The notes: generated by a model not told the origin, from the sequence alone. A DNA stretch of 64,000 nucleotides from Chloroflexota bacterium (GCA_012719135.1 JAAYAW010000047.1:22282-86281); one strand, 5' to 3'. Shown: positions 31,669 through 48,898, counted from the stretch's first letter. Program-made: numbers and translations.

Positions 31669-34236
31669 TCAGTGATGCTCCCGATGGTCCTCCGCCGCAG
31701 AATGCTCATGATACTGGCCGGCCGCGTGCATCCGATTGTGTAGCCGGCGGTGAGCGGATTCCAGGACGAGGCGCATCCGTTTGTAGACGACGTCCTCGGC
31801 GCGGGTGCCCACAGTGTCGAGGTAGGCCAGTGCCCCCTCGATCTGCTCCAGGATCGTGACGGCATCCGCTGCGGCATAGAACGGAGAGCCCTCCACCTCG
31901 GCCATCACCGGGGTGCTGTGCGCCGCGATGATCTCGGGCTTGTCCGCATAGTGGCCGCGGATCATCAGCGCCAGCCAGGAACTGCGATCCAGGCGCACGT
32001 TCCACTGACCGGAGGCCCGCCAGGGATCAATCGCGACCGACTGGCGAATTTCACCGTTAACGATCAACTCGGCCCTGGACATGGGGACCGTCACACTGGC
32101 GGCCTCCCAAACCACGTCGATGGTTCCCCCGCCCGCCCCCATGGACAGGCGCCCGCCCATAGGTTGGCCATCGACCGAACACTCGATGAGCGGGCCGTAA
32201 GTCACAAAAGTCTCCGCGCGCCGCACGGCGTCCATCCAGGTTTCATAGGTAAAGGGAACGCCCGCTGGGAGCCGGGCGTACGTCCGCACCGTGCCCACAG
32301 CGGTCGCCGCCGACATCTTGTCCGTCCCACCGACGGCGGGGACGAGATAGCCATTGTTGAGGTACCGGTACCAGTCCGACAGTGAATACGGACTGATCCC
32401 ATCATACAGATCTCCCCAGGAAGTCATCTCTATGCCATCGATTTGGCCCTCGATGATGGCCGCGGCGTGCTCCGCACGGGGATTGGGAAAGTGCGGCAGG
32501 ATCACCAAGCCGCCCTGCTGGTGACACTGGCGCGCCCACTCGGTGAGCAACACCTCCACGGGATCACCCAGTGCGGACTCGTCCGGGCCACCTGTGGTCA
32601 TGGGAGCGATGATCCGGCCGGAGTATCCGAGAAGAGAGATGTGGCCCAGGACGTGCTGGCGGTTCTCCGTGCCCACGCGCACGAGGTGCTCGCCATCGCC
32701 TCCGGCCTCGCGAGAACCCCAGGTGCTGTGCCCGTCGAAGTCGCCCACGTTGGTCATCAACTCGCCCCACTGGCTGGCCAACAGGTTGACGACGTTCACC
32801 CCTTCCCCGGAGCCCTCCAGAAGCGCGGACATGGGAGACAAAAAGTGGACGTGGGTATCCGCGCTCACCCAACCGCGCGAGCGCCACGGGAGAACGCGTT
32901 CCAACTCCACCGTGATTTGATCCGTGCCTGATGCGATCTCCAGAGTCCGCCTCAGCGGTCGAACCTCAAATCCTCGCGAGACCTCGAAGTAGACCCTGCC
33001 CAGAGGCAGGTCGACGGTCGTCTCGCCTGGTATGTACGTGGTATAGTGCTGCCCGAGGTGGGCGAAGTCGACCGAATAGTCCTCGAACCACTCGGGGTTG
33101 GGAATCCGGTGTCGGTCCACGGGAGAGAGATACTCCCCCGAGGCGCCATGCAGGTGAAGCTTGACGGGCACGGGCGCATTGCTGCCACGTTCCAGAACCC
33201 GAAGCTTGACGCGCCGGGTAGCGGGAGCCACGGAGCTCAGCGCACCGGAAGAGCCCACGCCCCGCAGAGCGGCGACGGGCACCTGCCGTCCGTTCCAGAG
33301 GTGGAAGCAGGCTTCGGGGTGAGCGGTATACTCGATCAGCACCTCCCGCTCGGAGAGCCCCGGGACCTGGTTGTTGTAGCTTCCGTCCCAGTTCGCGTCG
33401 GGATAGAGCGGGCACCGCTGTGCCGAGATCACCTGGCCCAGATCGAGTTGCACCTGGCGCAAGAGCCCCCGCCCGTCTACGTCAGCCTCAACATCCAGGC
33501 CCTCTGGGAGGGTTAGGATCGCTTTACGACGGCGCTCCCACCGGAGCGGGTGGCTCACGACGTCACCAGCAGACACCGCCAGAAAGAGCACGGCGCCGGA
33601 TGCCGGCTCCAGCCTGAGGCGATCAATCAAGACGCTCGGGCGCGGATTCTCCCAGGCAAACAACCAGTTGGTCCACGCAGCATCATCCGGCATTGCGGCG
33701 CGCGTCTGGCGCCAGCCCCATTCCTGAGGGGGTGCGCCCTGCTCGGGGCGCACCGGGAAAGGCTTACTGTGTGCCACGGCAGCCATGCAGTTCTCGCCCC
33801 AGCGGCGGGTATAGGCGCCGACCTCATAACGCCGCCGAATGGGAATCGCCATCTCGACGCCGTCCACGTAGCGCGCCACGTAACGCGCGGCCACCTCGCC
33901 CAGCCGGCCCTCACCACGCATGGGTGAATGGAACCCGGCCGCACCAGACGCTCCCGGGGCTAGCTCGGCGGGGCGCTGATCCGAGGTGTGCAAGAACACG
34001 AGCCAATGGGCGCGGCAATCGGGCAGATCGATCTCGACAGGCTCGCTGGCCAGCACCACGGGGTTACGGATGGCGAAGGAGATGCCCCAGGCCACCGATG
34101 GATCCTCGGGCACGCCGGGGAGGGCGGCTCGCATCTCTTCTGAAAGGAGGGTCGAACTCAGGGCGCCCCACGGCGTCCCTCCGTCAAAGGGGAGTGGACG
34201 AAAGAGCCGGCTGTAGAGGCCGTCACGCATCAGCAT
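31669..34236 (-). CDS. Large protein with a C-terminal PHP/CehA-McbA-type metallohydrolase domain. The N-terminal ~340 aa are unassigned.
   Basis: SADTHVHFLSP...VVNLLASQWG...HISLLGYSG...VILPHFPNP...GGTDKMS resembles the CehA/McbA family. The start at MLMRDG (34236) is tentative. Confidence 0.7.
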   Translation of the reverse strand: MLMRDGLYSRLFRPLPFDGGTPWGALSSTLLSEEMRAALPGVPEDPSVAWGISFAIRNPVVLASEPVEIDLPDCRAHWLVFLHTSDQRPAELAPGASGAAGFHSPMRGEGRLGEVAARYVARYVDGVEMAIPIRRRYEVGAYTRRWGENCMAAVAHSKPFPVRPEQGAPPQEWGWRQTRAAMPDDAAWTNWLFAWENPRPSVLIDRLRLEPASGAVLFLAVSAGDVVSHPLRWERRRKAILTLPEGLDVEADVDGRGLLRQVQLDLGQVISAQRCPLYPDANWDGSYNNQVPGLSEREVLIEYTAHPEACFHLWNGRQVPVAALRGVGSSGALSSVAPATRRVKLRVLERGSNAPVPVKLHLHGASGEYLSPVDRHRIPNPEWFEDYSVDFAHLGQHYTTYIPGETTVDLPLGRVYFEVSRGFEVRPLRRTLEIASGTDQITVELERVLPWRSRGWVSADTHVHFLSPMSALLEGSGEGVNVVNLLASQWGELMTNVGDFDGHSTWGSREAGGDGEHLVRVGTENRQHVLGHISLLGYSGRIIAPMTTGGPDESALGDPVEVLLTEWARQCHQQGGLVILPHFPNPRAEHAAAIIEGQIDGIEMTSWGDLYDGISPYSLSDWYRYLNNGYLVPAVGGTDKMSAATAVGTVRTYARLPAGVPFTYETWMDAVRRAETFVTYGPLIECSVDGQPMGGRLSMGAGGGTIDVVWEAASVTVPMSRAELIVNGEIRQSVAIDPWRASGQWNVRLDRSSWLALMIRGHYADKPEIIAAHSTPVMAEVEGSPFYAAADAVTILEQIEGALAYLDTVGTRAEDVVYKRMRLVLESAHRRLHNRMHAAGQYHEHSAAEDHREHH

Positions 34237-34371
34237 ACTACACCTCGCTGTGGGCACAGGCCTGCGTCGCAACACAAAGCCGCGATCCGCAGTCGTGCTT
34301 GTCACAGGCATCATACCGGGGCACGCCAGGTGGCGCAACAGGCCAGAGGCCGAGAGGCCTTGCTCTGGTGC

Positions 34372-36303: not shown

Positions 36304-36379
36304 GCGTCCTCCCCTGAGCGCCTGTCCGCATGCTACTCCGGGGGAGAGGCTTTGTACAATCAGGGCGGAAGCCGTGCCG

Positions 36380-36440
36380 ATTGACGGTTGCGGACATCTG
36401 CCCTATAGTATGCATACCAACCGGTCGGTTTGTTACGATC
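36380..36440 (+). promoter_or_regulatory. Candidate tetR promoter with an overlapping inverted repeat (possible operator).
   Basis: TTGACG (36380-36385), 18-nt spacer, TATAGT (36404-36409). The inverted repeat ACCAACCG-GT-CGGTTTGT lies immediately downstream (about 36416-36434). Confidence 0.35.
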
Positions 36441-36458
36441 AGAAACGGAGCCCAGCAG

Positions 36459-37061
36459 GTGGTCGCGAACCATCGCAATCCAGACACAACTCGCGCCCGG
36501 ATTCTGGAGAGCGCACAATCTGCGTTTGGCGAGATGGGCTACGACCGCGCCAGCGTGGCGGAGATCTGCGCGAGAGCCGGAGTCACCAAGGGCGGTTTCT
36601 ACCATCACTTTGAGAGCAAGCAGGCCATCTTCCAAGAGTTGCTGGAAGGGTGGCTCGAAGATATGGATGCCCGCCTCAACGCCTTCGAACGCCAAAGTCC
36701 AGATGTGCCCAGCCAGCTCGTGGCCATGACGGGCGTGTTGGGCCATGTGCTCGCCTCCGCTGGCGATCAGCTATCCATCTACCTGGAGTATGTGACGCAG
36801 GCGCTGCGCGACCCCGACCTGAGAGAGGCAACCGTTCAGCCCTATCATCGCTTTCACGCACGCATCGCCGACTCGATCCGGCGGGGCATCGCGGAAGGCA
36901 GCCTGCGCGAGGTCCACCCGGAGGCCGTTGCCAGCACCATTCTGGCGCTGGTGATGGGCCTGCTGCTGGAGGCGCTTCTTTCGCCGGGATCTCTCGATAC
37001 CTCGATGGCGGCGGCGCAGGCGATGCGCACGCTGCTCAACAGCCTATCCGTGGAGCAATAA
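36459..37061 (+). CDS. TetR/AcrR family transcriptional regulator.
   Basis: TRARILESAQSAFGEMGYDRASVAEICARAGVTKGGFYHHFESKQAIF. I chose the GTG at 36459, which has a GGAG 8 nt upstream. Confidence 0.85.
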   Translation: MVANHRNPDTTRARILESAQSAFGEMGYDRASVAEICARAGVTKGGFYHHFESKQAIFQELLEGWLEDMDARLNAFERQSPDVPSQLVAMTGVLGHVLASAGDQLSIYLEYVTQALRDPDLREATVQPYHRFHARIADSIRRGIAEGSLREVHPEAVASTILALVMGLLLEALLSPGSLDTSMAAAQAMRTLLNSLSVEQ

Positions 37062-37063
37062 AC

Positions 37064-38026
37064 ATGCGCGTGACAGTAACAGGTGCATTTGGGAATCTCG
37101 GGCAGCCCGTCCTTGAGCAGTTGATCCTGGAGGGGCACCAGGTCCGGGCCTTTGATCTGGATACGCGAGCGAACCGTAAGGCGGCGCGGCGTTACGGTCG
37201 CGATATTGAGGTGGTGTGGGGAAACCTGACCAGCGACGAAGACGTCCGCCGGGCGGTGGAGAACCAGGAAGCCGTGGTGCACCTGGCCTTTGTGCTGCCC
37301 TATCTATCGGCGACAGGCGTCAGCAGCGAAGCGGAACCGCGCTGGGCCCGCAGCATCAACGTCGGCGGCACGCGCCGCCTGCTGAACGCCATGCGCGCCA
37401 TGCCGCAGCCAGCCCGGATCCTGTTCACCTCATCGCTCCACGTCTATGGCCAAACCCGGGAAAAGTCCCCTTACCGCAGAGTGGACGATCCGCTTTCGCC
37501 CACAGATCACTACTCACACCACAAGATCATCTGTGAGACCCTGGTACGGCGATCGGGGCTGCGATGGACGATTTTCCGGTTGGCCGCATCACTGCCCACG
37601 CGCCTGATCCTGGACAAGGCGATGTTCAAGGTTCCGTTGGATACACGGATCGAGTTCGTACACCACAGCGACATCGCGCGCGCCGTGGCCAACGCGCTGG
37701 ACAATGAGGCGGCGTGGGGGCACATCTGGAACATCGGCGGAGGGCGCGAATGCCAGCTGTTACAGGGGGATCTCGTTCGCAGCGTGTTGGGCGCGATCGG
37801 TGTGGGCATGCTTCCGGAACAGGCCTTTGGCGGGGAGCCCTTTCCCACGGACTGGCTTGACACTGCCGAAAGCCAGCGGGCGCTGCGCTTTCAGTACCAC
37901 ACCCTGCAGGACTATCTGAAGGACTTGAGCGTTCGCCTGCGCCCGATCCGGCCCCTCTTGCGGATAGCGAGCCCCCTGATTCGCGCCTATCTGCTCTACG
38001 TCTCCATCGGCATGCGGCTCTCCTAG
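37064..38026 (+). CDS. NAD-dependent epimerase/dehydratase (extended SDR).
   Basis: MRVTVTGAFGNLGQPVL Rossmann motif and YSHHK. The ATG at 37064 lies 2 nt after the tetR stop. The long extension in the ORF track overlaps tetR and is rejected. Confidence 0.85.
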   Translation: MRVTVTGAFGNLGQPVLEQLILEGHQVRAFDLDTRANRKAARRYGRDIEVVWGNLTSDEDVRRAVENQEAVVHLAFVLPYLSATGVSSEAEPRWARSINVGGTRRLLNAMRAMPQPARILFTSSLHVYGQTREKSPYRRVDDPLSPTDHYSHHKIICETLVRRSGLRWTIFRLAASLPTRLILDKAMFKVPLDTRIEFVHHSDIARAVANALDNEAAWGHIWNIGGGRECQLLQGDLVRSVLGAIGVGMLPEQAFGGEPFPTDWLDTAESQRALRFQYHTLQDYLKDLSVRLRPIRPLLRIASPLIRAYLLYVSIGMRLS

Positions 38027-38715
38027 CCGCCGGCAGCTACCACGGAGCCCAGGATCGTCGCCAGCACGGGCCACGCCCGCTCTGCCTGACCCTCGGGCAT
38101 GCTGGCCACAAAGAGGAGCGCCTCTCCCCGGAGCATGACCGGGGCCACCACGGCATAGTAGATGCGCCCCGTCGCGTCGCTGGCCAGCGTGGCCTCGACC
38201 GCATCCACGGGGCCACCGGCAATCACCAGGGGAATCTCACGCACGGACAGGGCACCCGAGAGATCATAGCCGGCCAGTATCTCGGACGGCCGGCTCGCAT
38301 CGGGGACACGACGCACCAGCAGCGCCGGGCACTCCAGCTCGGCGGAGGTGAGGCAGGCCTCATCCTCGGCCAGCAGGAGTCCCCCTTCCAACTCGAGCCG
38401 GGCCCAGCCCCTGGGAATCTGCAGAGCCACCGGAAGTCCCTCAAGCTCGATCCCGGCCAGGTCAGACACAGCCTCCACAGCCGGGGTTGCCTCCAGTCCG
38501 GGCAGCCCGGTCGTAGCGGTAGAGGCGGGAGCAGCGGTGGCCTGCCCGGCGGGCGGAACCTCGTTAGCTGCCGTCACGCCGACCGACACGGTGGCTTGCT
38601 CGCGCACCGAGGCGGCCGTCGCGGTTGGGTCGCCTGCAACGGTGGCACGCCCACAACCCGGAAGCCCGGCCGCGAGCAGGGCCAGCGCCGATATGTAACA
38701 GACATAGCGCCTCAT
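38023..38715 (-). CDS. Exported lipoprotein, function unknown. Candidate immunity or accessory protein of the Rhs toxin.
   Basis: MRRYVCYISALALLAAGLPGC lipobox, an Ala/Thr/Pro-rich linker, then a globular part of about 150 aa. It starts 9 nt after the Rhs stop, and the GAGG Shine-Dalgarno overlaps the last G of the Rhs TAG stop (TAGGAGGCTGCGATG). Confidence 0.6.
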   Translation of the reverse strand: MRRYVCYISALALLAAGLPGCGRATVAGDPTATAASVREQATVSVGVTAANEVPPAGQATAAPASTATTGLPGLEATPAVEAVSDLAGIELEGLPVALQIPRGWARLELEGGLLLAEDEACLTSAELECPALLVRRVPDASRPSEILAGYDLSGALSVREIPLVIAGGPVDAVEATLASDATGRIYYAVVAPVMLRGEALLFVASMPEGQAERAWPVLATILGSVVAAGG

Positions 38716-38724
38716 CGCAGCCTC

Positions 38725-41700
38725 CTATATCCCCAGGAAGAGCTGAGCAAAGCTGCCACCCAGCCCCTCGCCCATCTTGGAGACGAAAAAGTCCATCACC
38801 AGCTGGGCAGGCTTTTCAAATACGTGCGTCATTCCCCCGGTGATGCCTCCGGCAAGCGCGCCGATCACCGCCGACCGGATGATATCTCCGCCATCCACAT
38901 CTCCCAGGGAGCGACCGTCTAGGAAGAGCTGGCTCAGAAAGCTCTCAGCCGCGCCGGTCGCCGCACCACCCACGACCCCCCCCGCGATGCCGGCCGCCGC
39001 GCTGGAGAGACCCATCGCCCCAAAGAGCGCCCCGGTGCCGAGACCCAGGGCATAGCCGCCTGCCCCAACGGCGGCGCCGATCGCGGCGCCCACGGCGATC
39101 CGGCGCGCCATCTCCCACCCGCTGAAGCATTCCCAGGTGGTCGAGAAGGCATAGCTGGCCCCGCTGTAGGAGGCGTAAAAGGCCGCTCCGATCACAGCGG
39201 CGGCGATGATCAGCGGCACCAGCTCTCCGGTGGGATCGTTATAGCGCAGGGGATTGTTCAGGCCGAACTGGTACCCGTTCAGAGAGCCGGTCACATAGGG
39301 TGCGCGCACGGGATCGGGCGAGATAAAGCGCCCGATCTCCGGATCGTACCAACGAGCGCGCACGTCGTACAGCCCCGTGTCAACCTCGTAGTCACGCCCC
39401 TGAAAGCCCGGCAGGGGAACAGTGGAGGCAGCCTCCCCCTCGTCTCTGTCCAACGGCACCCCCCAGGGATCATAGGCCGCCTGCACAACCTGAGCCCCCG
39501 ACGCATCCACCGCGCCGCTGACCGTGCCCTGGGCATCCGCCACGGGATAAAGGGAGGACAAGGCCTCGCCATCCTCTGCCGGTACAGCCAGCGCGGCCCA
39601 CTCATCCCAGCGCGCACCCGGTTGGCGAAGCTGCTGGAGCGCGCCTCGCTCGTCCAACGTGGCTATGGCGTGAGCGCCATCGAACTGCGTCACCTCCAAC
39701 GAGCCATCACCACGGGTCGTCTCTACTCGCTCCCCCGTCAACGCGTACCGGTACCGAGCGACAGGCGTGCCCTGAGCGGTATCCAGCGGGAAGGGCAGCC
39801 GCTCTGTGGACTGATCCGTGACCGAGACGAGCCGCCCCTGGTAGTCCCAGCCATAGCTGCGGGTTTGCCCGGCGCTCCTCTCACTCACCAGACGCCCGTT
39901 CCGGTCGTAGGCATAGTCCGTCTCGCCAGCGCTCAGGAGTTGGTGAGCTGCGTCGTACGCATAGAGCACAGGGGCGCTGGATCCCACCGCCAGAGACGTC
40001 CGGTTGCCGACGGCGTCATAGGCATAGGCGGTCCGCAGACCAGAGGGATCCTCATAGCCCGTCAGGCGATCAAGCGCATCATAGGCATAGGTGGAGGTAC
40101 CATCGGGTCCCGTGATAGCCACGGTGTTCCCCACCGCGTCATAGCCATACTTGACGGTGCGATCGAGCCCATCCCGAACACCCTGGAGGTACTGGCGCAC
40201 CTGTGTAACCCGGCCGAGGCGATCATAGCTCAGGGCGGTGCGAAGCGGCCCCGTTCGCACGTCCACACGCAGCGGAGCGAGTTGATTGGCGATCTCGTAC
40301 GTGTACTCGGTCTTGCCCAGGGGCCCCTCGATCCGCTTGAGCTCTCCGCAGGAGCCATACGCGTATTTCGTTCGCTCGCCGGTAGAGGTGCTCATCTCCG
40401 AGATCTGTCCGGAGGGGTCATAGCTGTATGTGACCCAGCTGGTTCTTCCGGCGCGGGCGTCCGCCACGGTAAGGACACGTCCCGCGCTATCCCGCTGGTA
40501 CGTGCGGGTGAGCCCCTGACCGCTCAAGGAGGTGACACGGCCAGCAGCATCATAGGAGAGCCGCCAGGCCTCTCCGTTCGGGTAGGTCACTGTCAGCGGC
40601 CTGCCCAAGTCATCGTTCTGCAGCGTGATGCGGTCACCGCGAGCATCGATACGGGCCAGCAGCTCTCCCTGGCTGCCCCACACAAAGCTGGTTCTCCTGC
40701 CCAGGGGGTCGATGACATCCAAGACCCGGCCGGCATGGTCATAGGCATAGCTCGTGGTACTGCCGAGCGGATCGGTAACCGCCTCGATGCGGTTGAGGGC
40801 ATCATAGGCGTACAGGGTCTCGCCACCCAACGGATCCACCTGCCGGACCACGCGCCCGGCAGCATCGTACTCCACGGAGCGTGTACGCCCGAGGGCGTCG
40901 GTCACGCTAATCAGGCGGCCAGCCTCGTCATACCCGTACCGGGTTTCGCCGCCGGCAGGATCCACCGTGGTGGCCAGGAGCCCCCGAGGGTCATAGCGGT
41001 AGGCGATGACGTTCGCATCGCCTTCGCGCTCAGGATCACCCTGCCCGTTCCAGTTCCAGATCATTGCGCTCGGCTGGCCATAGGGAGAGAGACCTTCGTC
41101 GTAGACGTAATACCAGCGCAAGCCGCCGTGCTCCACCCCGGTGCGCCGGCCCTGGCTGTCATAGCGCCAGGAGAGCGCCGATTGTCCCTGTACGCCGATC
41201 GACACCAGTGTCCAGTAGCCACCGATCTGCCGGTATCCGTAGCTGACCGCCGGAAGTGGCGATTGTGTGACGCGTTCGACCAGAGCCGTTCCGGCATGGT
41301 ACGTATAGTCCGTCGTCAGGCCATCGGCATCCGTCTCGGAGAGCAACAAGCCGCGTGACTCTCCCCAGCCCCAGGTTCGCTTCCAGACATACCAGGTGCT
41401 CCCGCCATCAGGGCTGCGCATCGTCTGAACCACACGGCCGTGGGCATCATAGGCGTAGCGATGCTCAGAGGTTTCCGTGCCATCTGCCGCTACATAGGTA
41501 ACCACGGTCGTTCCAAGAACAGGCGCCCTGGCGGCCACGTCGGCAGCCGCGTACGGCTCCAGGTTGAGGACTGTCGCGAAGGTGACGCGGTGGCCGGCGG
41601 GATCAATCACCTCGACGAGCTGACCATCCTCGGCGTAGGCGTACCGGGTGGTGTAGCCCAGTGGGTCAGACTTGGCCGTCAGGCGGTGAGCGGCATCGTA

Positions 41701-42834
41701 GGCGAGGGTGTAGGTTCCGCCGAGAGGATCGGTCAGCGAAGCAAGGTCATCGTCCTGATAGCCCAGATCCCAGGTCGCACCGGATGCGTCCGTGATGGCG
41801 ATCAGATGCCCCCGATCGTAGGAGAGGGTCGTCTCTCGGGAGGCTTCATCACGGATAGAGGCGAGATGCCCTTCGTCGTCATAGGCAAAGGCTAGAAAGC
41901 GTCCGGTGGGCTCCTCCCAGCGGGTCACACGCCCGTCGGCGCTCAGCACCGTCAGGCCACGCACAGGGGCGCCATCGGCGCCGTTCCGCAGCCAGTGCCA
42001 GGTGCCGTCCGGCTGCTGACTGAGAGTATGTCCCGGGGCACTGGCGCAGTTGTACACGCCGCGCCTGCCCACGAACAACTGGTCAAAGCCAAAGGCATGG
42101 AGCAGGACACGCTCCGAATCGAGCACCTGCAATTGCACGTCATAGTTGTGCCACCAGTTGACGCCCAGGGGCCCCGACTCTGGCCGCTGCACGATGACGG
42201 GATGGAACGTGCTCCCCAGCCCCATCTCATTCTCGTAATGGATCTCCATGTCATAGACGCCGGCAGGCAAGAGCTCGCCGGTGTCTCGATCGGTAGTATC
42301 CCAGAGGGCCAGAGGTTGAGAGCCCTCGCCCCTAAAGACCCAGCCGGCGATCCGAATCTCCCAGCGCTCGATGGGCAGCAACGTGGGCACCCAGGCACTG
42401 AGGATCATGGGAACCGGCTGTGGCCGGCTATCATACCGGAGGACCAACGAAGGGCCCACGCTGCCCAGCGTATGGCTGAGGGTGAGTTTGCGCCCGGCAT
42501 AGGAGACGCTGGATCCGGCCGCCTCACCCTCCAGGCAGGTATCCTCATCCTCGTACAGGGAGTTGGTGTCGCCCGGGTCATGACAGAGGGGCGCGGAGAG
42601 GGGATCCCCGAGGGGAGCAGCCGCGGGCGCCGCCCAAGCCTGTGGAGACAGATCCTGAAAAGCGACAGCGGCACTCTCCAGCGCCTGGCCGATGCCCGGC
42701 GGCACGATCCCGGACAGCTCCTTCCTGGAGGAAATGACGAGGTGGGCGAGAGTCACGGGGACGCCAACCACCTGAAAGACGAGCGCGGTGAGCACCACCA
42801 GAGAGATCCGTTTGAGCCAGCTATTTCTTCGCAT
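38725..42834 (-). CDS. Rhs/YD-repeat polymorphic toxin-like protein with an N-terminal signal/anchor and a glycine-zipper C-terminal tip.
   Basis: MRRNSWLKRISLVVLTALVF signal. There are dozens of YD-type repeats (for example YAYDALGR, YGYDEAGRL, YEYDAAGRV, YAYDHAGRV, YSYDPSGQ). The RHS core end is RWYDPEIGRFISPDP...GLNNPLRYNDPTGE, followed by 165 aa rich in GxxxG/AxxxG. Confidence 0.9.
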   Translation of the reverse strand: MRRNSWLKRISLVVLTALVFQVVGVPVTLAHLVISSRKELSGIVPPGIGQALESAAVAFQDLSPQAWAAPAAAPLGDPLSAPLCHDPGDTNSLYEDEDTCLEGEAAGSSVSYAGRKLTLSHTLGSVGPSLVLRYDSRPQPVPMILSAWVPTLLPIERWEIRIAGWVFRGEGSQPLALWDTTDRDTGELLPAGVYDMEIHYENEMGLGSTFHPVIVQRPESGPLGVNWWHNYDVQLQVLDSERVLLHAFGFDQLFVGRRGVYNCASAPGHTLSQQPDGTWHWLRNGADGAPVRGLTVLSADGRVTRWEEPTGRFLAFAYDDEGHLASIRDEASRETTLSYDRGHLIAITDASGATWDLGYQDDDLASLTDPLGGTYTLAYDAAHRLTAKSDPLGYTTRYAYAEDGQLVEVIDPAGHRVTFATVLNLEPYAAADVAARAPVLGTTVVTYVAADGTETSEHRYAYDAHGRVVQTMRSPDGGSTWYVWKRTWGWGESRGLLLSETDADGLTTDYTYHAGTALVERVTQSPLPAVSYGYRQIGGYWTLVSIGVQGQSALSWRYDSQGRRTGVEHGGLRWYYVYDEGLSPYGQPSAMIWNWNGQGDPEREGDANVIAYRYDPRGLLATTVDPAGGETRYGYDEAGRLISVTDALGRTRSVEYDAAGRVVRQVDPLGGETLYAYDALNRIEAVTDPLGSTTSYAYDHAGRVLDVIDPLGRRTSFVWGSQGELLARIDARGDRITLQNDDLGRPLTVTYPNGEAWRLSYDAAGRVTSLSGQGLTRTYQRDSAGRVLTVADARAGRTSWVTYSYDPSGQISEMSTSTGERTKYAYGSCGELKRIEGPLGKTEYTYEIANQLAPLRVDVRTGPLRTALSYDRLGRVTQVRQYLQGVRDGLDRTVKYGYDAVGNTVAITGPDGTSTYAYDALDRLTGYEDPSGLRTAYAYDAVGNRTSLAVGSSAPVLYAYDAAHQLLSAGETDYAYDRNGRLVSERSAGQTRSYGWDYQGRLVSVTDQSTERLPFPLDTAQGTPVARYRYALTGERVETTRGDGSLEVTQFDGAHAIATLDERGALQQLRQPGARWDEWAALAVPAEDGEALSSLYPVADAQGTVSGAVDASGAQVVQAAYDPWGVPLDRDEGEAASTVPLPGFQGRDYEVDTGLYDVRARWYDPEIGRFISPDPVRAPYVTGSLNGYQFGLNNPLRYNDPTGELVPLIIAAAVIGAAFYASYSGASYAFSTTWECFSGWEMARRIAVGAAIGAAVGAGGYALGLGTGALFGAMGLSSAAAGIAGGVVGGAATGAAESFLSQLFLDGRSLGDVDGGDIIRSAVIGALAGGITGGMTHVFEKPAQLVMDFFVSKMGEGLGGSFAQLFLGI

Positions 42835-42853: not shown

Positions 42854-43648
42854 TCAGTCTCCGTTGGCCACGGTTACATGCAGCCAATCGCTCCCGGCAT
42901 GGTCACGCAAGTCATTGAACGTCACGGCCAGACGGTACGTGCCGTCGGGGATATTGCGGGTATCCCAGGCCTGGCAGAACGTGTCCGCGGGAACGCGCCC
43001 ATCCCAGGCTGTACGTCCGTCCAGATACACAACAACATGATACTCGCCCGAGGGAATCCCACGCGCGACGCCGAGCGCCGCACACACGTCCACAACACCG
43101 TAGAGTGTCTCCCCCTCGCTCGGGCTCACCAGGGTGACATCGAGATCGCGGCAGCCACCCCGTTCATGTGTAAAGTGCTTCTCCGCCGGGTAGCGAAGCG
43201 CAAGAAGCGCATCCCGATCCCAAAGAACGGGCTCCCCGCTCTCCAGGGCCGGCTCTGCGTCCAGAACCACCGAGACGCCGCGCGGGGCCACGGGGTCACC
43301 CTTGTGATCCAGGCCGTCCCAACTCTCCGTCTGGCGCCCGGTACCGCGCTCCGCCCAGTCCAGCAGGGTGCGCAGAATGACGCCCGGGCACTCGCTGTCT
43401 ACGATGCGCAGCCTCACCCGTGCGGGAGCATCCACAGTGTAGCTCAGGGCAAAGGGCGGCGCACCGGCCTCACGCAGAGACGTGACATCCAGGGCGCTCA
43501 TCCGGGGGTAAACGGCGATGGGCTCGGCTGCCTGCACGCCTGCGCTTTCGCTCGCTCGAGGAGCCTCCTGGCCAACTGCGCAGCCGGCCGCCAGAAGCGC
43601 GCCAAGCGCGGCCATCATGTGGAGGAGGAGACGACAGCGGAGCCTCAC
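42854..43648 (-). CDS. Exported lipoprotein with FlgD-Ig-like motifs.
   Basis: MRLRCRLLLHMMAALGALLAAGC lipobox. Motifs ESWDGLDHKGDPVAPRG and WDTRNIPDGTYRLAVTF resemble the WDGxDxxGxxxxxGxY signature. The GTG start overlaps the TGA of the upstream permease (GTGA). Confidence 0.6.
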   Translation of the reverse strand: MRLRCRLLLHMMAALGALLAAGCAVGQEAPRASESAGVQAAEPIAVYPRMSALDVTSLREAGAPPFALSYTVDAPARVRLRIVDSECPGVILRTLLDWAERGTGRQTESWDGLDHKGDPVAPRGVSVVLDAEPALESGEPVLWDRDALLALRYPAEKHFTHERGGCRDLDVTLVSPSEGETLYGVVDVCAALGVARGIPSGEYHVVVYLDGRTAWDGRVPADTFCQAWDTRNIPDGTYRLAVTFNDLRDHAGSDWLHVTVANGD

Positions 43649-45222
43649 GTTGCGCCCCGGCCCCGGGCGAGGGCCCAGGCGCCCAACGAGCCCAGCACGG
43701 CCAGCGCTATCAGCGAGAGGGCCAGCGCGGCCACGTGCTCTGCCAGCCCGTCATGCTGCAGCGTATAGAGACGAACGGCCAGGGTATCATCGCCGGGGGC
43801 ATGCACGAGCACGGTGGCCTCGAGCTCGGTCATGGCTCGGAAACAGGCCAGGGCACAGGCGGAGCCCATCGCGCTTCGGAGGAGAGGAAGCCGGATGTGG
43901 CCACTGAGATCGCGTTCCGAGGCACCAGCCACCTGGGCGGCCTCCTCGATCTCGCGAGGAAGGCGCCGCCAGCCGGAGGAGAGAGCCAAAGCCGCCAGGG
44001 GGAGCGCCCGAAGGGCCATGCAGAAGAGGACCATCAACGGGCTGCCGTAGACCCATCCAGCCCATCCGCCCCGGTTGAACAGGCGAATCAGCCCCATACC
44101 CACGGCGACGCCCGGCACTACCAGCAGCGCCACGTTCAGGGCCTGCATCACGCCAGCCGCCGCCGGTCGAGCGCGACTCATTAGCCGGGCCACCGGCCAG
44201 GCGAGCAGGCAGCCCAATATGGCGCCCAGAGGACCGTAGAGCGCCGTATTGGCGATCTGTCGCCGGGCGCTTGACCAGGCCGCCAGGAAATCCGCCACCG
44301 CCGGGGCTCGGAAAGACAGGGCCAGCAGCGGCACGGCAGTTGCCAGCAAGGCCGGAAACAGCAGCAGAATGAAAGCTGGCCACCGGCATCCGCCGAGAGA
44401 GAAGGGGCGCCTGATCCCCGCCGTGAAATGCAGGGGGGTGGCGCCCTGGCGCCCGGTAAGCCGCAGGAAGAGCAAGAGCCCCACTGCAGACAGGATCGCG
44501 AGGGGCAGCAGAGCTCTCATCCCTCCGCCAACATCGTAAAAGGCGCCAAAGCGCAGCATCACTTGGGCAGTATAGACGGGCACTCCCAGAAAAGAGCATA
44601 CGCCATAGTCCCCGAGAACCAGCAGCACCAGGACGAGAGCCGCGGCCGCCACAGCCGGCACAAGCGCAGGGCCGATGACGCCCCTCAGCACGGCCTTAGC
44701 CCCGCCATCCAGGATGGCGTGGTCGATCAAGTCCGCGTCCAGACTGGCCAGGCCCGCCTGCGCCATGAGAGCAATCAACGGATAGCCCCATAGCCCGAGC
44801 ACCCAGATGGCACCGAAGGGAGAGAGGAAACCCATGAACGGCTCCGCGTTCAGCAAGCGCCCGAGAAACGTACCCCAACTCCCGCGCGGCCCCAGCAGAT
44901 GCAGCCAGCCGATCGTCGCGATATAGGGCGGCACCAGCAGCGGGGCGATGGCCAGCGACCGCAGCACGCCACGCGCCGGGACATCTGTGCAGGCCATCAC
45001 CAGTGCAACGGGCACCCCTATGGCCGTGGCAAGGGCTGTGGAGCCGATGGCTACGACAAGCGAGCGAGACAGAACCTGCGCCGATGCGGCACCGGAATAG
45101 CCGAACCCCGGGGATGAGGTGATAGCGGCGGGCACGAGAGCCAGCATTGGTGCCCAGCAGGCACACATGACCGCCCACGGAGCAAAGCCTTGCCAGACCC
45201 GCTGGGCCCGCGAGAGGATCAT
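43645..45222 (-). CDS. Fe(III)/thiamine-type ABC importer permease (duplicated, two-module permease).
   Basis: About 12 TM segments in two halves. I chose the ATG at 45222 (MILSRAQRVW). The longer version in the ORF track overlaps the SBP gene. Confidence 0.85.
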   Translation of the reverse strand: MILSRAQRVWQGFAPWAVMCACWAPMLALVPAAITSSPGFGYSGAASAQVLSRSLVVAIGSTALATAIGVPVALVMACTDVPARGVLRSLAIAPLLVPPYIATIGWLHLLGPRGSWGTFLGRLLNAEPFMGFLSPFGAIWVLGLWGYPLIALMAQAGLASLDADLIDHAILDGGAKAVLRGVIGPALVPAVAAAALVLVLLVLGDYGVCSFLGVPVYTAQVMLRFGAFYDVGGGMRALLPLAILSAVGLLLFLRLTGRQGATPLHFTAGIRRPFSLGGCRWPAFILLLFPALLATAVPLLALSFRAPAVADFLAAWSSARRQIANTALYGPLGAILGCLLAWPVARLMSRARPAAAGVMQALNVALLVVPGVAVGMGLIRLFNRGGWAGWVYGSPLMVLFCMALRALPLAALALSSGWRRLPREIEEAAQVAGASERDLSGHIRLPLLRSAMGSACALACFRAMTELEATVLVHAPGDDTLAVRLYTLQHDGLAEHVAALALSLIALAVLGSLGAWALARGRGAT

Positions 45223-45229
45223 TGTGACG

Positions 45230-46249
45230 TCACTGCAGGACGAGCTCTGCCAGCTCGGCACAGACGCCATCCATCGCCTGGCCGATCGCCGCGAAGTCGA
45301 CGGACATTGCCCGGATCTGATCGAGTGAACGAACACCCTCCGGTACGGGCACGCCAGGATGCAGGGGGATCTGAGCGGAGCGCGAAGCCGCCAGGACCGC
45401 CTCCGTCTCAGGGCGAAGCATATAGTCCACGAATCGCCGCCCCTCATCGGGATGGGGGCCTCCCGCGATGAGGGCAATGGTGTTGGGGATCAGCATGGCA
45501 CCGATGCCGTCCTGATCCGGGTACACAATAGCGACGGGGAGGCCATCGGCCATAGCCTCGAAAGCGTCCGATGTATCGATCACGCCCACGGCCATGGCCC
45601 CCTGGGAGACGATGTCTCGTACGGCGGTGTTGCCCACAACGATCCGGGCGTCGTTGGCAATCAGATCGCTCAGCCAGGTGAGAGCGGCATCGCGGCCCAG
45701 TGCCAGATAGAGCGCCGTGTGGTGGCTCGCCATGGTGCCGAGATAGGGCGTGCCGAGGGCCACCTGCCCGCGCCAGCGCTCGTCGGAAAGCTCAAAGATC
45801 GAACGAGGCGCCTGGTCCGCGGGAACAAGATCGGTGTTGTAGATGATCACGCGGGCACGCGCGCTAAAGCCTGTCCAGTACCCGTCCGGGTCCCGAAAGG
45901 CAACCGGGATCGATTCTGCACCCGGGGATTGGAAGGGAGCAAGGATCCCGGCCTGCTGAAGCACGACCGTTCGCCCGGTATCCGAGCTCCAGAAGACGTC
46001 CGCTCGGGGATGGTTCCGCTCCTCCAGCAGGCGGTTGGTCAGCCCGACGGTCTTGGTAGCGCCCGTGTCGTAGATCGCCTCCACGCGGATACCCGTCTCC
46101 CGTTCAAAGGCGTTCAGCACCGGCTCGGCATAAAGCTGGTCACGAGAGCAGTAGACGACGACAGAGGGTGAGGCCGGGCGACAGCCGGCAAATACAGCGA
46201 GAGAGAGAAGAACACACAGCCAGTGGCACACGGGGGCTCGACGCTGCAT
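45230..46249 (-). CDS. Fe(III)-type ABC importer substrate-binding lipoprotein.
   Basis: LSLAVFAGC lipobox. VVVYCSRDQLYAEPVLNAFERETGIRVEAIYDTGATKTVGLTNRLLEE...ADVFWSSD is typical of the FbpA/AfuA-like family. Confidence 0.85.
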   Translation of the reverse strand: MQRRAPVCHWLCVLLSLAVFAGCRPASPSVVVYCSRDQLYAEPVLNAFERETGIRVEAIYDTGATKTVGLTNRLLEERNHPRADVFWSSDTGRTVVLQQAGILAPFQSPGAESIPVAFRDPDGYWTGFSARARVIIYNTDLVPADQAPRSIFELSDERWRGQVALGTPYLGTMASHHTALYLALGRDAALTWLSDLIANDARIVVGNTAVRDIVSQGAMAVGVIDTSDAFEAMADGLPVAIVYPDQDGIGAMLIPNTIALIAGGPHPDEGRRFVDYMLRPETEAVLAASRSAQIPLHPGVPVPEGVRSLDQIRAMSVDFAAIGQAMDGVCAELAELVLQ

Positions 46250-46296
46250 GTAGTCCCACCTGGATGCGCGGCCTAGAGGGAGGTGCCAACACACCC

Positions 46297-46326
46297 ATTA
46301 TAGCGATTGCCGGCCAACCGAGTCAA
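46297..46326 (-). promoter_or_regulatory. Near-consensus sigma70-type promoter for the ABC importer / lipoprotein / Rhs unit.
   Basis: On the minus strand: TTGACT (46321-46326), 18-nt spacer, TATAAT (46297-46302). It lies about 47 nt upstream of the ATG at 46249. Confidence 0.5.
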
Positions 46327-46377
46327 CGGGCGGGCCGGGACCGCCCCACTGGAGATGCGCTCTGCGCCTGGCGAAGC

Positions 46378-47183
46378 CTACGGAAAGAGCGCCAGCGGCA
46401 GGGAACCCAAGCCCAGCCTGAGGCGTGCGTAGAGATAGCCGGCGGCGAGGATCCCAAGCGCGATCAGGCCACCGATGTCCGATGGCCGCAGGCGCAGGCG
46501 CCGTAGAAAGGTGCGGTGGGGCATTGCGCCCAGCGCCCTCGACTCGAGACCATAGGATACGCTCTGGGAGGTGCGCAGCGCCGTGATCACCATAGCCACG
46601 GTGATGGGTATGTAGGCGCGCATGCGCTTGAGGAATCCTCCGGCGTGCAGGTCCAGACCACGAGCCTGCTGAGCCTCGGAGATGGCCCGAAAGACGCCCG
46701 CCATGGTGGGAAGGTAACGCAGCGCCATGCCCGCGGTGAACCCCCAGGTGAACGGCAGACCGAGGGCCACCAGGCCCAACACGAGGCGTTCGGAATCGGT
46801 GGTATAAAGCCAAACAAAGACGGTAAAGGCCAACGCCGCGATGCGCAAACCGATGGCAGCCCCCTGCGCCAGGTTCGCCGGCCCCAGGCGAAGGGCGCCC
46901 CACTCGAACCAGGCGGGGCCAACGGGTTCGTTGAAGACGGTCCAGAGAACGCTCACTAGCAATACCGTGGGCAGCGTGACGCGCCAAACCGAGGCTACTC
47001 TTGCGGCGCCGACTCCGGAGACAAGCAGAATCAGGTGAAGCAGCAGGAGCATCCCCAGAATAAGCCAGAGGTTCACCGTCAGCAGCAGGCAAAGCGAGCT
47101 GCAGAGTACAAAGGCCAGCTTGAGCCGGGGATCGGCGTCATGCAGCCACGATCGGCCCGGCTGGTAGAGCTCGTACACTGGGC

Positions 47184-47187
<4 letters not shown>
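46378..47187 (-). CDS. ecfT: ECF transporter transmembrane (T) component.
   Basis: YQPGRSWLHDADPRLKLAFVL and the ARG-containing coupling helices (...QQARGLD...). 4-nt overlap with ecfA2. Confidence 0.85.
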
Positions 47188-48022
<835 letters not shown>

Positions 48023-48026
<4 letters not shown>

Positions 48027-48898
48027 TGCTCGTCCTCCAGCTCCCGCCTCAGAACAGCCTCACCTTCATCCACGGTAAGGAAGGACGCCACACCGTATTG
48101 TTGGCGCAACGTGCCCGAGAGCAAGGTGAGCTGAGGCGCAGCCACGCCCGCGGCCCGCATGACATCACGATCTTCGAACAACTCACGCGGGGAGCCGTCG
48201 CAGGCAATCCGACCGTCAACCATGAGAGCCAGGCGATCGGCATAGGCGGCGACATGTTCAGCGTCCTGGCTCACCATGACGATCGTCATGCGGCGATCCT
48301 GGCGCAGTTGCTCGATGACGCGAAAGACCTCGCGACGCCCGAGTGGATCCAGCGCCGCGGTGGGTTCGTCCAGGATAAGGACTTGCGGGAGCATGGCCAG
48401 CGCGGCAGCGATCGCCACACGCTGCTTCTGGCCGCCGGAAAGGTGCGCGGGGGCACGCCCCCGGTATGCCGACATGCCAACGACTGTGAGAGCCCACTCC
48501 ACGCGCTCGCGGATCTCATCGGGTGGTACGGCCAGGTTTTCCGGACCGAAAGCGACTTCAGCCTCCACGGTCGCCGAATACAGCTGGCTCTCTGGATCCT
48601 GGTAGACAATGCCCACATGCCTGGCAAGCTGGGCAACCGGTGTGCGGCGTGCATCCAGCCCCAGCACGGTGACACTCCCGCCGATAACGCCTCCCGTAGC
48701 CTGTGGCACGATCCCGTTCAGCGCCAGGCAGAGCGTCGACTTGCCAACTCCGGCGGCTCCCATCAGCGCGAGAAACTCGCCCACCTGCACGTCCAGGTCC
48801 ACGCCACGCAGAACCAACTCCGGCGCGTGCCCGGGAATGAGGGCCGGGTAGCGGTAGGTGAGGCCCCTTACGGCGATGACTGGCGCAGGCTCACTCAC
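48023..48898 (-). CDS. ecfA1: ECF transporter ATPase A1.
   Basis: GAAGVGKST, LSGGQKQRVAIA, ILDEPTAALD and VSQD. Confidence 0.9.

Follow-up and report, generated by a model that had tools for sequence, protein, structure and literature searches.

Rhs proteins with membrane-active, non-enzymatic tips are represented by very few characterised cases, and the model among them, Tse5 (PA2684) of Pseudomonas aeruginosa, is proteobacterial and delivered by a type VI secretion system (T6SS). Its C-terminal part, Tse5-CT, is a hydrophobic pore-forming tip encapsulated in the Rhs shell (PMC10684867), which inserts spontaneously into lipid and depolarises cells (PMC9637101, PMC10684867). A second precedent is mosquito SGS1, in which ~230 amino acids of predicted transmembrane (TM) helices lie inside the Rhs shell, right after the autoprotease site (PMC9935623). 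Here we describe an Rhs locus of an uncultured Anaerolineales bacterium (Chloroflexota), located on a stretch of 64,000 nucleotides (GCA_012719135.1, JAAYAW010000047.1:22282-86281; this whole stretch is referred to as the window). The Rhs protein ends in a 165-residue tip that is rich in glycine-zipper motifs and is probably a membrane-active cargo, and its gene stands in a conserved three-gene module with LipoA, which codes for a lipoprotein with immunoglobulin (Ig)-like domains, and LipoB, which codes for a PsbP/DUF1795-type lipoprotein. The Rhs gene and its parts are placed as follows in the window.

38725..42834, minus strand: Rhs/YD-repeat protein of 1369 amino acids (translated open reading frame [ORF]; Pfam, NCBIfam and PDB matches)
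42742..42834, minus strand: N-terminal export signal of ~31 amino acids, MRRNSWLKRISLVVLTALVFQVVGVPVTLAHL (read by eye; the N termini of orthologues are equivalent)
39226..39474, minus strand: Rhs-associated core / aspartyl autoprotease plug, residues 1121-1203, ...RARWYDPEIGRFISPDPVRAP...NNPLRYNDPTG (TIGR03696)
39223..39237, minus strand: DPTGE motif, residues 1200-1204, with self-cleavage predicted after E1204 (translation and alignment)
38728..39222, minus strand: tip, residues 1205-1369, 165 amino acids, a glycine-zipper-rich, helical, putative non-enzymatic cargo (translation, motif counts, AlphaFold2 [AF2])
39127..39222, minus strand: tip residues 1-32, the most hydrophobic helix LVPLIIAAAVIGAAFYASY and a conserved aromatic/Cys loop (Kyte-Doolittle, alignment)
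38947..39099, minus strand: tip residues 42-92, the main GxxxG/AxxxG zipper run IAVGAAIGAAVGAGGYALGLGTGALFGAMGLSSAAAGIAGGVVGGAATGAA (motif counts)
38830..38979, minus strand: tip residues 82-131, with the motif ...ESxLSQLxLxG+SxGDxDxxDIxxSAxIGALAGGxTGG (exhaustive phmmer)

The Rhs protein is organized, from its N terminus, as a signal-peptide-like region, a YD shell, an Rhs-associated core and the tip. RHS_repeat (PF05593) matches it in 17 stretches with E=2.2e-93 in a Pfam scan, YD_repeat_2x (TIGR01643) matches with E=1.2e-70 in an NCBIfam scan, and a PDB sequence search relates the shell to the cocoons 7q97 and 8h8a and to Tse5 (8cp6). TIGR03696 (NCBIfam, E=2.6e-18) spans residues 1121-1203, and the core, RARWYDP...SPDP...NDPTGE, aligns column for column with the cores of Rhs, TccC3, YenC2 and SGS1, including the Arg and the two Asp that correspond to the catalytic residues described for the Rhs-type autoprotease (PMC9935623). 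SGS1 is cut between Q2733 and I2734 (PMC9935623); D1200 corresponds to SGS1 Asp2729 by alignment, with Q2733|I2734 as the expected cut position, and because SGS1 and the other Rhs/TcC cores align with a cut after E1204, the autoproteolytic cleavage is expected there, making L1205 the likely first residue and the biologically correct boundary of the tip. An earlier note on this DNA had delimited the same 165 residues after DPTGE, at 38728-39222, and both its translation, which is identical, and its boundary agree with this placement.

Glycine (20%) and alanine (19%) are roughly twice as common in the tip as in the shell (10.7% and 10.3%), and composition does not by itself account for how these residues are arranged. 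GxxxG occurs 15 times against 6.3±2.0 expected, a count that none of 10,000 composition-preserving shuffles reached, and the excess is limited to the i,i+4 spacing, all other G-G spacings occurring 3-8 times. Triple small-xxx-small-xxx-small motifs (28 versus 15.6±3.7, p=0.001) and Sm-xxx-G-xxx-Sm motifs (14 versus 6.7±2.3, p=0.002) are in excess in the same shuffles, so that the run of GxxxG and small-residue packing motifs first noticed by eye goes beyond what composition provides. With a genomic GC content of 64%, and with Gly and Ala leading the residue counts of the shell too, one might suspect a GC-driven, low-complexity Gly/Ala tail of no specific function; this explanation is effectively refuted by periodicity and conservation. 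The i,i+4 periodicity lies above all 10,000 shuffles, and 19 columns are invariant across seven aligned tips (alignment A1; identity to the window tip 39-88%), among them Y19, Y24 and the single Cys, C32, with A7, G12, A13 and A14 as further invariant columns in the first part, so that Tyr and Cys are held across homologues of ~40% identity. The dN/dS ratio (nonsynonymous over synonymous substitution rates) of the tip is 0.075-0.15 against orthologues, with dS >1, reflecting strong purifying selection. Given this ratio and the invariant columns, the tip is a real constrained domain and no low-complexity tail.

Four hydrophobic stretches are present in the tip, at residues ~1-19, 42-60, 66-84 and 114-132. 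Three or four had been reported previously, and the number stands, but only the first passes a Kyte-Doolittle value of 1.6, the other three being marginal and glycine-rich. The first helix, at 1.98, is of classical TM grade and is followed by a loop containing Y19, Y24, FST and the invariant C32. This marginal, glycine-rich profile would suit a segment able to stay soluble while shielded and to enter a membrane once freed.

At the other end of the protein, the export signal comprises a basic n-region and a hydrophobic core, with a TLA|H-like cleavage site (placed by eye), and a Sec-type signal-like N terminus is common to all orthologues. No PAAR, VgrG, LXG or other trafficking domain is found in the Rhs protein by the Pfam and NCBIfam scans, which return RHS domains only, and there are no T6SS or type VII secretion system (T7SS) genes among the scanned ORFs of the 64-kb window. 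With a clearly hydrophobic helix in the C-terminal part, a signal at the N terminus and a tip that is kept in all homologues, the tip could serve the producer as a stop-transfer anchor, an alternative already raised in the earlier note; it would partition from SecYEG into the producer's own membrane, and its several helices would hold the shell on the outside of the cell. This is very improbable, as the segment after DPxG lies inside the shell in every solved Rhs, TcC and SGS structure (PMC10684867, PMC9935623), an intact autoprotease would sever the anchor from the shell, and helices 2-4 are too glycine-rich and too marginal for translocon-driven integration.

Two further observations concern the N terminus and the reading frame. 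Most orthologues have a twin arginine in the n-region of the signal (MRRNSW, TRRW, SRRRW, ARRGLLRW), a hint that the cocoon may leave the cell folded, by Tat; this route is nonetheless unsupported and was set aside because the orthologue in an Anaerolineales metagenome-assembled genome (MAG; CAZMAI010000030.1, locus L005:2207-6498) has R-A-S-R in this region (MRASRW), and the RR pair is therefore not invariant. In that same locus the Rhs gene is represented by two ORFs separated by a run of N, which reflects a masked or scaffolded stretch and no real frameshift; its tip and LipoB are intact.

Tse5 and the window Rhs share a cocoon with a DPxG...DPxG autoprotease and a hydrophobic, non-enzymatic tip of ~150-165 amino acids as the (here putative) cargo, and Tse5 is a conserved core effector that is not hyper-variable, as is the case for the window tip. 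The shells match, whereas similarity between the tip sequences is not detected. Delivery and partner also differ: Tse5 is delivered by T6SS via PAAR and VgrG4 and is paired with Tsi5, a two-TM membrane protein, whereas the window Rhs has a Sec-type signal and is paired with the PsbP-fold lipoprotein LipoB. WapA-type YD/Rhs toxins of the monoderm Bacillus subtilis are, like the window Rhs, YD-repeat proteins with a signal peptide and no link to T6SS; they serve contact-dependent competition, a use that the window Rhs of a monoderm-type cell would share. The tips of WapA proteins are tRNases that vary between strains and are countered in the cytoplasm by immunity proteins, whereas the window tip is conserved, hydrophobic and no enzyme.

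The window tip also resembles the helical, non-enzymatic C termini with (G/A/S)xxxGxxxG motifs of EsxX, TelE and TspA (T7SS LXG proteins), of Caulobacter CdzC/CdzD and of the ionophore CdiA-CTs of contact-dependent inhibition (CDI) systems. CDI ionophore domains are predicted to fold as bundles of five helices with the zipper in helix 4 (PMC11630599), and the AF2 model of the tip, made from seven sequences, likewise has five helices with a zipper-rich helix 4. These toxins differ in their carriers (LXG, CdiA or a type I-secreted bacteriocin versus Rhs), and no homology between them and the tip is detected.

Relatives of the tip are very few and form an unannotated family. When 1.84 billion cluster representatives are searched exhaustively with phmmer, 7 proteins match (P0002, P0004-P0009). 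P0002, a close fragment, has 86% identity; P0004, P0005, P0007 (full-length Rhs proteins) and P0006 (a fragment) have tips 38-49% identical to the window's. P0008 (E=6.5e-5) and P0009 (E=4.1e-4) align at query residues ~82-131 only. The exhaustive search was needed for P0004-P0009, since three near-identical fragments are all that a word-indexed search yields among 5.8 billion proteins, whether the tip or profile A1 is the query. A scan of GTDB genomes with the single tip sequence returns one Anaerolineales MAG (L005), with a tip 76% identical, and further members are found in four metagenome loci (L007, L008, L023 and L024); tblastn of the tip against 72,556 plasmids gives no match. In every family member the tip follows NPLRxxDPxG of the Rhs core.

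The two most distant relatives, P0008 and P0009, share with the window tip only the motif at tip residues 82-131 (G+SxGDxD...SAxIGALxGGxxGG) and are carried by otherwise unrelated Rhs proteins; in these two the motif has the form G+SFxDxD...IGALSGGVGG. P0008 (L019:754-3473) is located at an Rhs 3' end, and P0009 (L017:3571-6096) is an orphan Rhs-CT downstream of a full Rhs. The latter locus has the layout of a classic array, with a main Rhs, a 114-amino-acid ORF, the orphan Rhs-CT and small ORFs. Immediately after P0008 and P0009 are ORFs of 76 and 82 amino acids, each very hydrophobic and with two TM segments (maximum Kyte-Doolittle 2.2-2.3), that are 36% identical to one another (E=7e-9). 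The immunity protein CdiI of CDI ionophores has 72-100 amino acids and two helices (PMC11630599), and Tsi5 is a two-TM membrane immunity protein of Tse5 (PMC9637101); being small two-TM proteins like these, the products of the 76- and 82-amino-acid ORFs are immunity-like, and together with the P0008 and P0009 tips they likely form an unannotated toxin-immunity family.

The two lipoprotein genes of the module flank the Rhs gene in the window.

38023..38715, minus strand: LipoB, a lipoprotein of 230 amino acids with an LPGC lipobox, a disordered linker and a PsbP/Mog1/LpqN/DUF1795-fold domain (ORF, AF2, Foldseek)
42854..43648, minus strand: LipoA, a lipoprotein of 264 amino acids with Ig-like domains (FlgD_ig E=0.0012, Big_7 E=0.013, both below threshold)

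LipoB starts 9 nucleotides after the Rhs stop codon, and its lipobox Cys is invariant in a five-sequence alignment. Pfam gives weak, sub-threshold matches to LpqN, PsbP and PsbP_2, and the AF2 model scores >90 in pLDDT (predicted local distance difference test) for residues ~86-228. Foldseek finds 46 hits to this domain with E<=0.001, nearly all with a PsbP/Mog1-type alpha-beta-alpha sandwich; they include PsbP (1e-6), Tsi3 (6e-5) and SciW/EagT6 (1e-4 to 1e-3) as well as Apa, LpqN, Mog1 and DcrB, and the SciW and EagT6 structures matched are complexes with effector TM domains. LipoB thus shares its fold with the Eag (DUF1795) chaperones SciW and EagT6 and with the T6SS immunity protein Tsi3, at an identity of only 10-18%. 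Its family comprises 11 cluster representatives, and an Rhs of the same type adjoins LipoB wherever the context is readable. These relationships make LipoB a proposed candidate protector for the tip, acting as an immunity protein or as a holdase. Eag proteins are reported to keep the hydrophobic TM helices of Rhs effectors soluble (PMC7773334). They work in the cytoplasm, on prePAAR TM domains at the N terminus of T6SS effectors, whereas LipoB is an exported lipoprotein and would act on a C-terminal hydrophobic tip.

LipoA is the first gene of the module and is directly upstream of Rhs in all cases, with LipoB intervening in one locus (L002). It is 40-56% identical among relatives, with ~60 invariant columns (alignment A4). 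These include H158, H161, C166 and an NDLxDHxGSD block near the C terminus, and such residues could form a metal- or ligand-binding site; no family is assigned to LipoA.

The reading we prefer for Rhs and LipoB is that of a Sec-exported cocoon with a membrane-depolarising cargo and a lipoprotein as protector. As a whole chain it is evenly poised between right and wrong; what we consider probable is narrower, namely that the tip serves as a membrane-active cargo. In this scheme the Rhs protein would be exported by Sec, and its shell would fold around the hydrophobic tip, cut after E1204 and shield the tip inside, as has precedent in Tse5-CT and SGS1. Contact with the cytoplasmic membrane of a neighbouring cell would release the tip, which would insert by its first hydrophobic helix, and the GxxxG faces would then oligomerise into an ion-conducting assembly that dissipates the membrane potential, with Tse5-CT, EsxX/TelE/TspA and the CDI ionophores as precedents. 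LipoB, tethered on the outer face of the producer membrane, would capture the tip before it inserts into the producer itself, by analogy to Eag chaperones and to ExiB, a soluble protein that neutralises the glycine-zipper toxin EsxX by sequestering the zipper in a hydrophobic groove (PMC12744356). LipoA would be a conserved accessory that may tether Rhs at the surface or bind the target. Taken further, LipoB may be an extracytoplasmic Eag-like holdase, a non-membrane cognate protector against a glycine-zipper ionophore, and the module a new mode of deployment and neutralisation of a membrane-active Rhs payload in a monoderm-type phylum; we regard this extension as doubtful. A second and weaker strand of it is that the tip family could be a kind of Rhs cargo ancestral to the hydrophobic TM moiety of mosquito SGS proteins.

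The suggestion of a membrane payload, first made in the earlier note, is thus favoured by a tip that is non-enzymatic, zipper-enriched, predicted to be all-helical and in cargo position, with relatives in toxin arrays; it lacks toxin homology, and the tip is conserved. Several results weigh against it. No known toxin matches the tip in sequence or fold (Pfam, NCBIfam, PDB, Foldseek, plasmid tblastn). It reaches the threshold of no Pfam or NCBIfam family in scans extended to E=10, and PDB sequence searches with the tip alone and with profile A1 give no meaningful match, which accords with the view that it is no recognisable enzyme and equally leaves no detectable homology to CdzC/CdzD-type toxins, to Tse5-CT or to other solved or curated membrane toxins. 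Sub-threshold matches are Bacteriocin_IIc (the best, E=0.038), SidF and PT-VENN, and other family members likewise stay below threshold. Those that recur point solely to bacteriocin or glycine-zipper models, which speaks for the membrane reading: Bacteriocin_IIc recurs with E=0.02-0.04 in two members of the tip family and Gly-zipper_OmpA with E=0.021 in one, at 14.4-15.1 bits against a Pfam cut-off of 27, short of the gathering threshold. By a simple Hessa-type sum the hydrophobic segments come out at +2 to +5 kcal/mol, marginal as TM helices. Confidence in the AF2 model of the tip is low (pLDDT 57), and Foldseek returns nothing with E<=0.001 for it, the best matches, to membrane helices of Tim17/Tim23 type and of complex I, having E values no lower than 0.09; the model is used as a hint of secondary structure only. 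No homologue of the small two-TM immunity proteins is found in the window or in the Anaerolineales loci (searched in the window and all fetched loci), and LipoB is no membrane protein, unlike the known immunity proteins of pore formers. The PsbP-like fold, moreover, is generic for extracytoplasmic binding proteins, and in L002 LipoB is upstream of Rhs, between LipoA and Rhs.

One divergent member of the family, at L024:6668-7190 (metagenome contig Ga0163210_1003038), bears on the role of the zippers. It retains the FSTPxDC loop (in full, YxxSYYFFSTPSDCWT) and the GxSxxxID motif (in full, GQSPSEIDWGEV) and is far more polar than the other tips, with 2 GxxxG, 9% Gly and 17% charged residues. Because it keeps the loops and has lost most of the zippers, glycine zippers may not be the sole functional core of the family. 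Its sequence runs on for at least ~30 residues past the usual family end, up to the contig edge, and may have an extra C-terminal domain; P0005 and P0006 also have longer C termini. Such extensions would fit an entry or translocation domain, comparable to the glycine zipper of Tde1, to prePAAR TM domains or to CdiA-CT entry domains, with the toxin lost or present in some members only, and a glycine zipper needed for translocation of a T6SS DNase is reported (PMC10240207). This is a rather improbable account of the window tip: together with 8 of the 9 other aligned close-family tips (the partial L024 being the exception), it comes to an end within 161-191 residues and lacks any further domain; nor would a translocation module without cargo be expected to hold a dN/dS of ~0.1.

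The evolutionary mode of the tip is also at odds with a typical polymorphic toxin. It is not swapped: every orthologue found has the same tip family, and in nearly all pairs the identity of the tip is no lower than that of the shell (tip/shell, in %: 88/66, 86/70, 76/62, 49/42, 48/45, 40/44 and 38/50). Between the window and L005, the tip has a nonsynonymous rate (dN) of 0.17 and the shell one of 0.32; LipoA stands at 0.34, and LipoB, with 0.43, is the fastest-evolving gene of the module, a point in favour of its proposed role as protector. Eight independent metagenome contigs have the same last 991 nucleotides of the Rhs gene, tip included, with zero nucleotide differences, and an identical LipoB protein; wastewater and digester samples carry this contig. 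The earlier note had taken conservation of the tip across all homologues as a sign against a toxin, and this is in part what is seen, the tip being in all orthologues found and slower-evolving than the shell. It had also judged by eye that AT is no higher in the tip than in the shell, and the GC content bears this out (0.673 versus 0.647, and 0.794 versus 0.752 at third codon positions [GC3]; whole window 0.642). The mode of the tip is therefore the opposite of the usual conserved shell and swapped tip, and this is not a recently swapped polymorphic tip; recent horizontal acquisition, considered as a separate possibility, was rejected on the basis of GC, GC3 and synteny.

The sole exception to tip conservation is an orthologous Rhs with a truncated tail in an Anaerolineae MAG (GCA_046496305.1, contig JAWOHD010000070.1, locus L006:1-2810). 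This protein ends '...NNPLRFTRILSESHRPIIAACGLCARGG...' with an unrelated tail of 65 amino acids and has neither DPxG nor tip, while LipoB is intact 24 nucleotides downstream and the downstream synteny is kept. Either this is toxin loss with the immunity gene retained, the pattern expected of an immunity gene, or it is an assembly or frameshift artefact.

These evolutionary features, together with SGS1, raise the alternative of a non-toxic insertion or anchoring module, in which the tip enters the membrane of a sister cell (in a filament) or of a partner and serves adhesion, cohesion or signalling, as with teneurins and as proposed for mosquito SGS1, with LipoA and LipoB as surface partners. 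The locus is single-copy, orthologous, syntenic and vertically inherited across Anaerolineales relatives, with an ATP-binding cassette (ABC) importer on one side and an epimerase and TetR on the other; its tip is never swapped and changes at a lower rate than the shell, and at the window locus there are no orphan tips or immunity cassettes, no membrane immunity gene and no mobile-element or GC signature. Mosquito SGS1 and SGS4 (PDB 8fjp and 9on3) have hydrophobic helices directly after DPxG-x, a placement identical in the window Rhs, and SGS1 is the only solved structure with such helices stored inside an Rhs shell. In a phmmer search that includes the core, SGS1 (E=1e-11) and SGS4 (E=8e-10) align with the window protein for ~90 residues past the cleavage site, over IGA..Y.GA..A...W....W....G...GA..GA. 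Shuffled decoys reach these scores in 83 and 88 of 5000 cases with composition correction in HMMER (p=0.017-0.018) and in 3 and 34 of 5000 without it (p=0.0006-0.007), giving an order-specific p of ~0.0006-0.02.

On the other side, the tip-only profile does not retrieve SGS1 from PDB and the outcome of the shuffles is marginal, and the similarity past the cleavage site is for that reason regarded as weak and largely compositional; homology to SGS1/SGS4 is not claimed, and these are treated as a structural analogue of the window Rhs. SGS1 is, besides, eukaryotic and 3364 amino acids long, and it has additional receptor domains and, after the TM region, a C-terminal Tox-SGS domain, whereas the window protein ends at tip residue 165 and has no such domain. 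The intact autoprotease motif implies that the tip is released from the shell, which suits a payload better than an anchor; the relatives that share the 82-131 motif stand in classic toxin/immunity arrays, and core, non-polymorphic Rhs pore toxins do exist, Tse5 among them. The non-toxic module is the most serious of the competing explanations, even if we think it unlikely.

Under the preferred reading of a membrane-active cargo, the locus would extend membrane-active Rhs tips to Chloroflexota, to Sec-type export and to a previously unannotated tip family, in an atypical mode in which the tip is the most conserved part of the Rhs protein and not the most variable. LipoB, as an exported lipoprotein of PsbP/DUF1795 fold, might protect against pore-forming toxins in a new way. 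Should the tip instead be non-toxic, the system would be a bacterial Rhs cocoon that delivers a membrane-inserting module for a purpose other than killing, and it would bear on the origin of SGS and teneurin-like proteins.

The conserved gene order around the module is an ABC permease, LipoA, Rhs and LipoB, then a convergent epimerase and TetR, then Metallophos and APH genes. Directly upstream of LipoA and co-directional with it is an ABC importer set (43645-48898, minus strand) with a two-domain permease, a solute-binding protein and two ATPases, the permease stop overlapping the LipoA start by 4 nucleotides. The permease also adjoins the module in three other loci (L004, L005 and L007) and is not adjacent in L002, for which reason it is probably a mere neighbour. 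Elsewhere in the window, an 889-amino-acid ORF (31669-34338, minus strand) has no Pfam match at E<=1e-4; the homologous position in L006 is occupied by an ORF of 856 amino acids, also without a Pfam match, that runs off the locus. The epimerase ORF (36650-38026, plus strand, 458 amino acids) overlaps the TetR ORF (36330-37061, plus strand), and since gene calls on related contigs are shorter, at 320 amino acids for the epimerase and ~200 for TetR, both genes start further downstream than these ORFs do. The epimerase and LipoB genes are convergent, the former overlapping the LipoB 3' end by 4 nucleotides.

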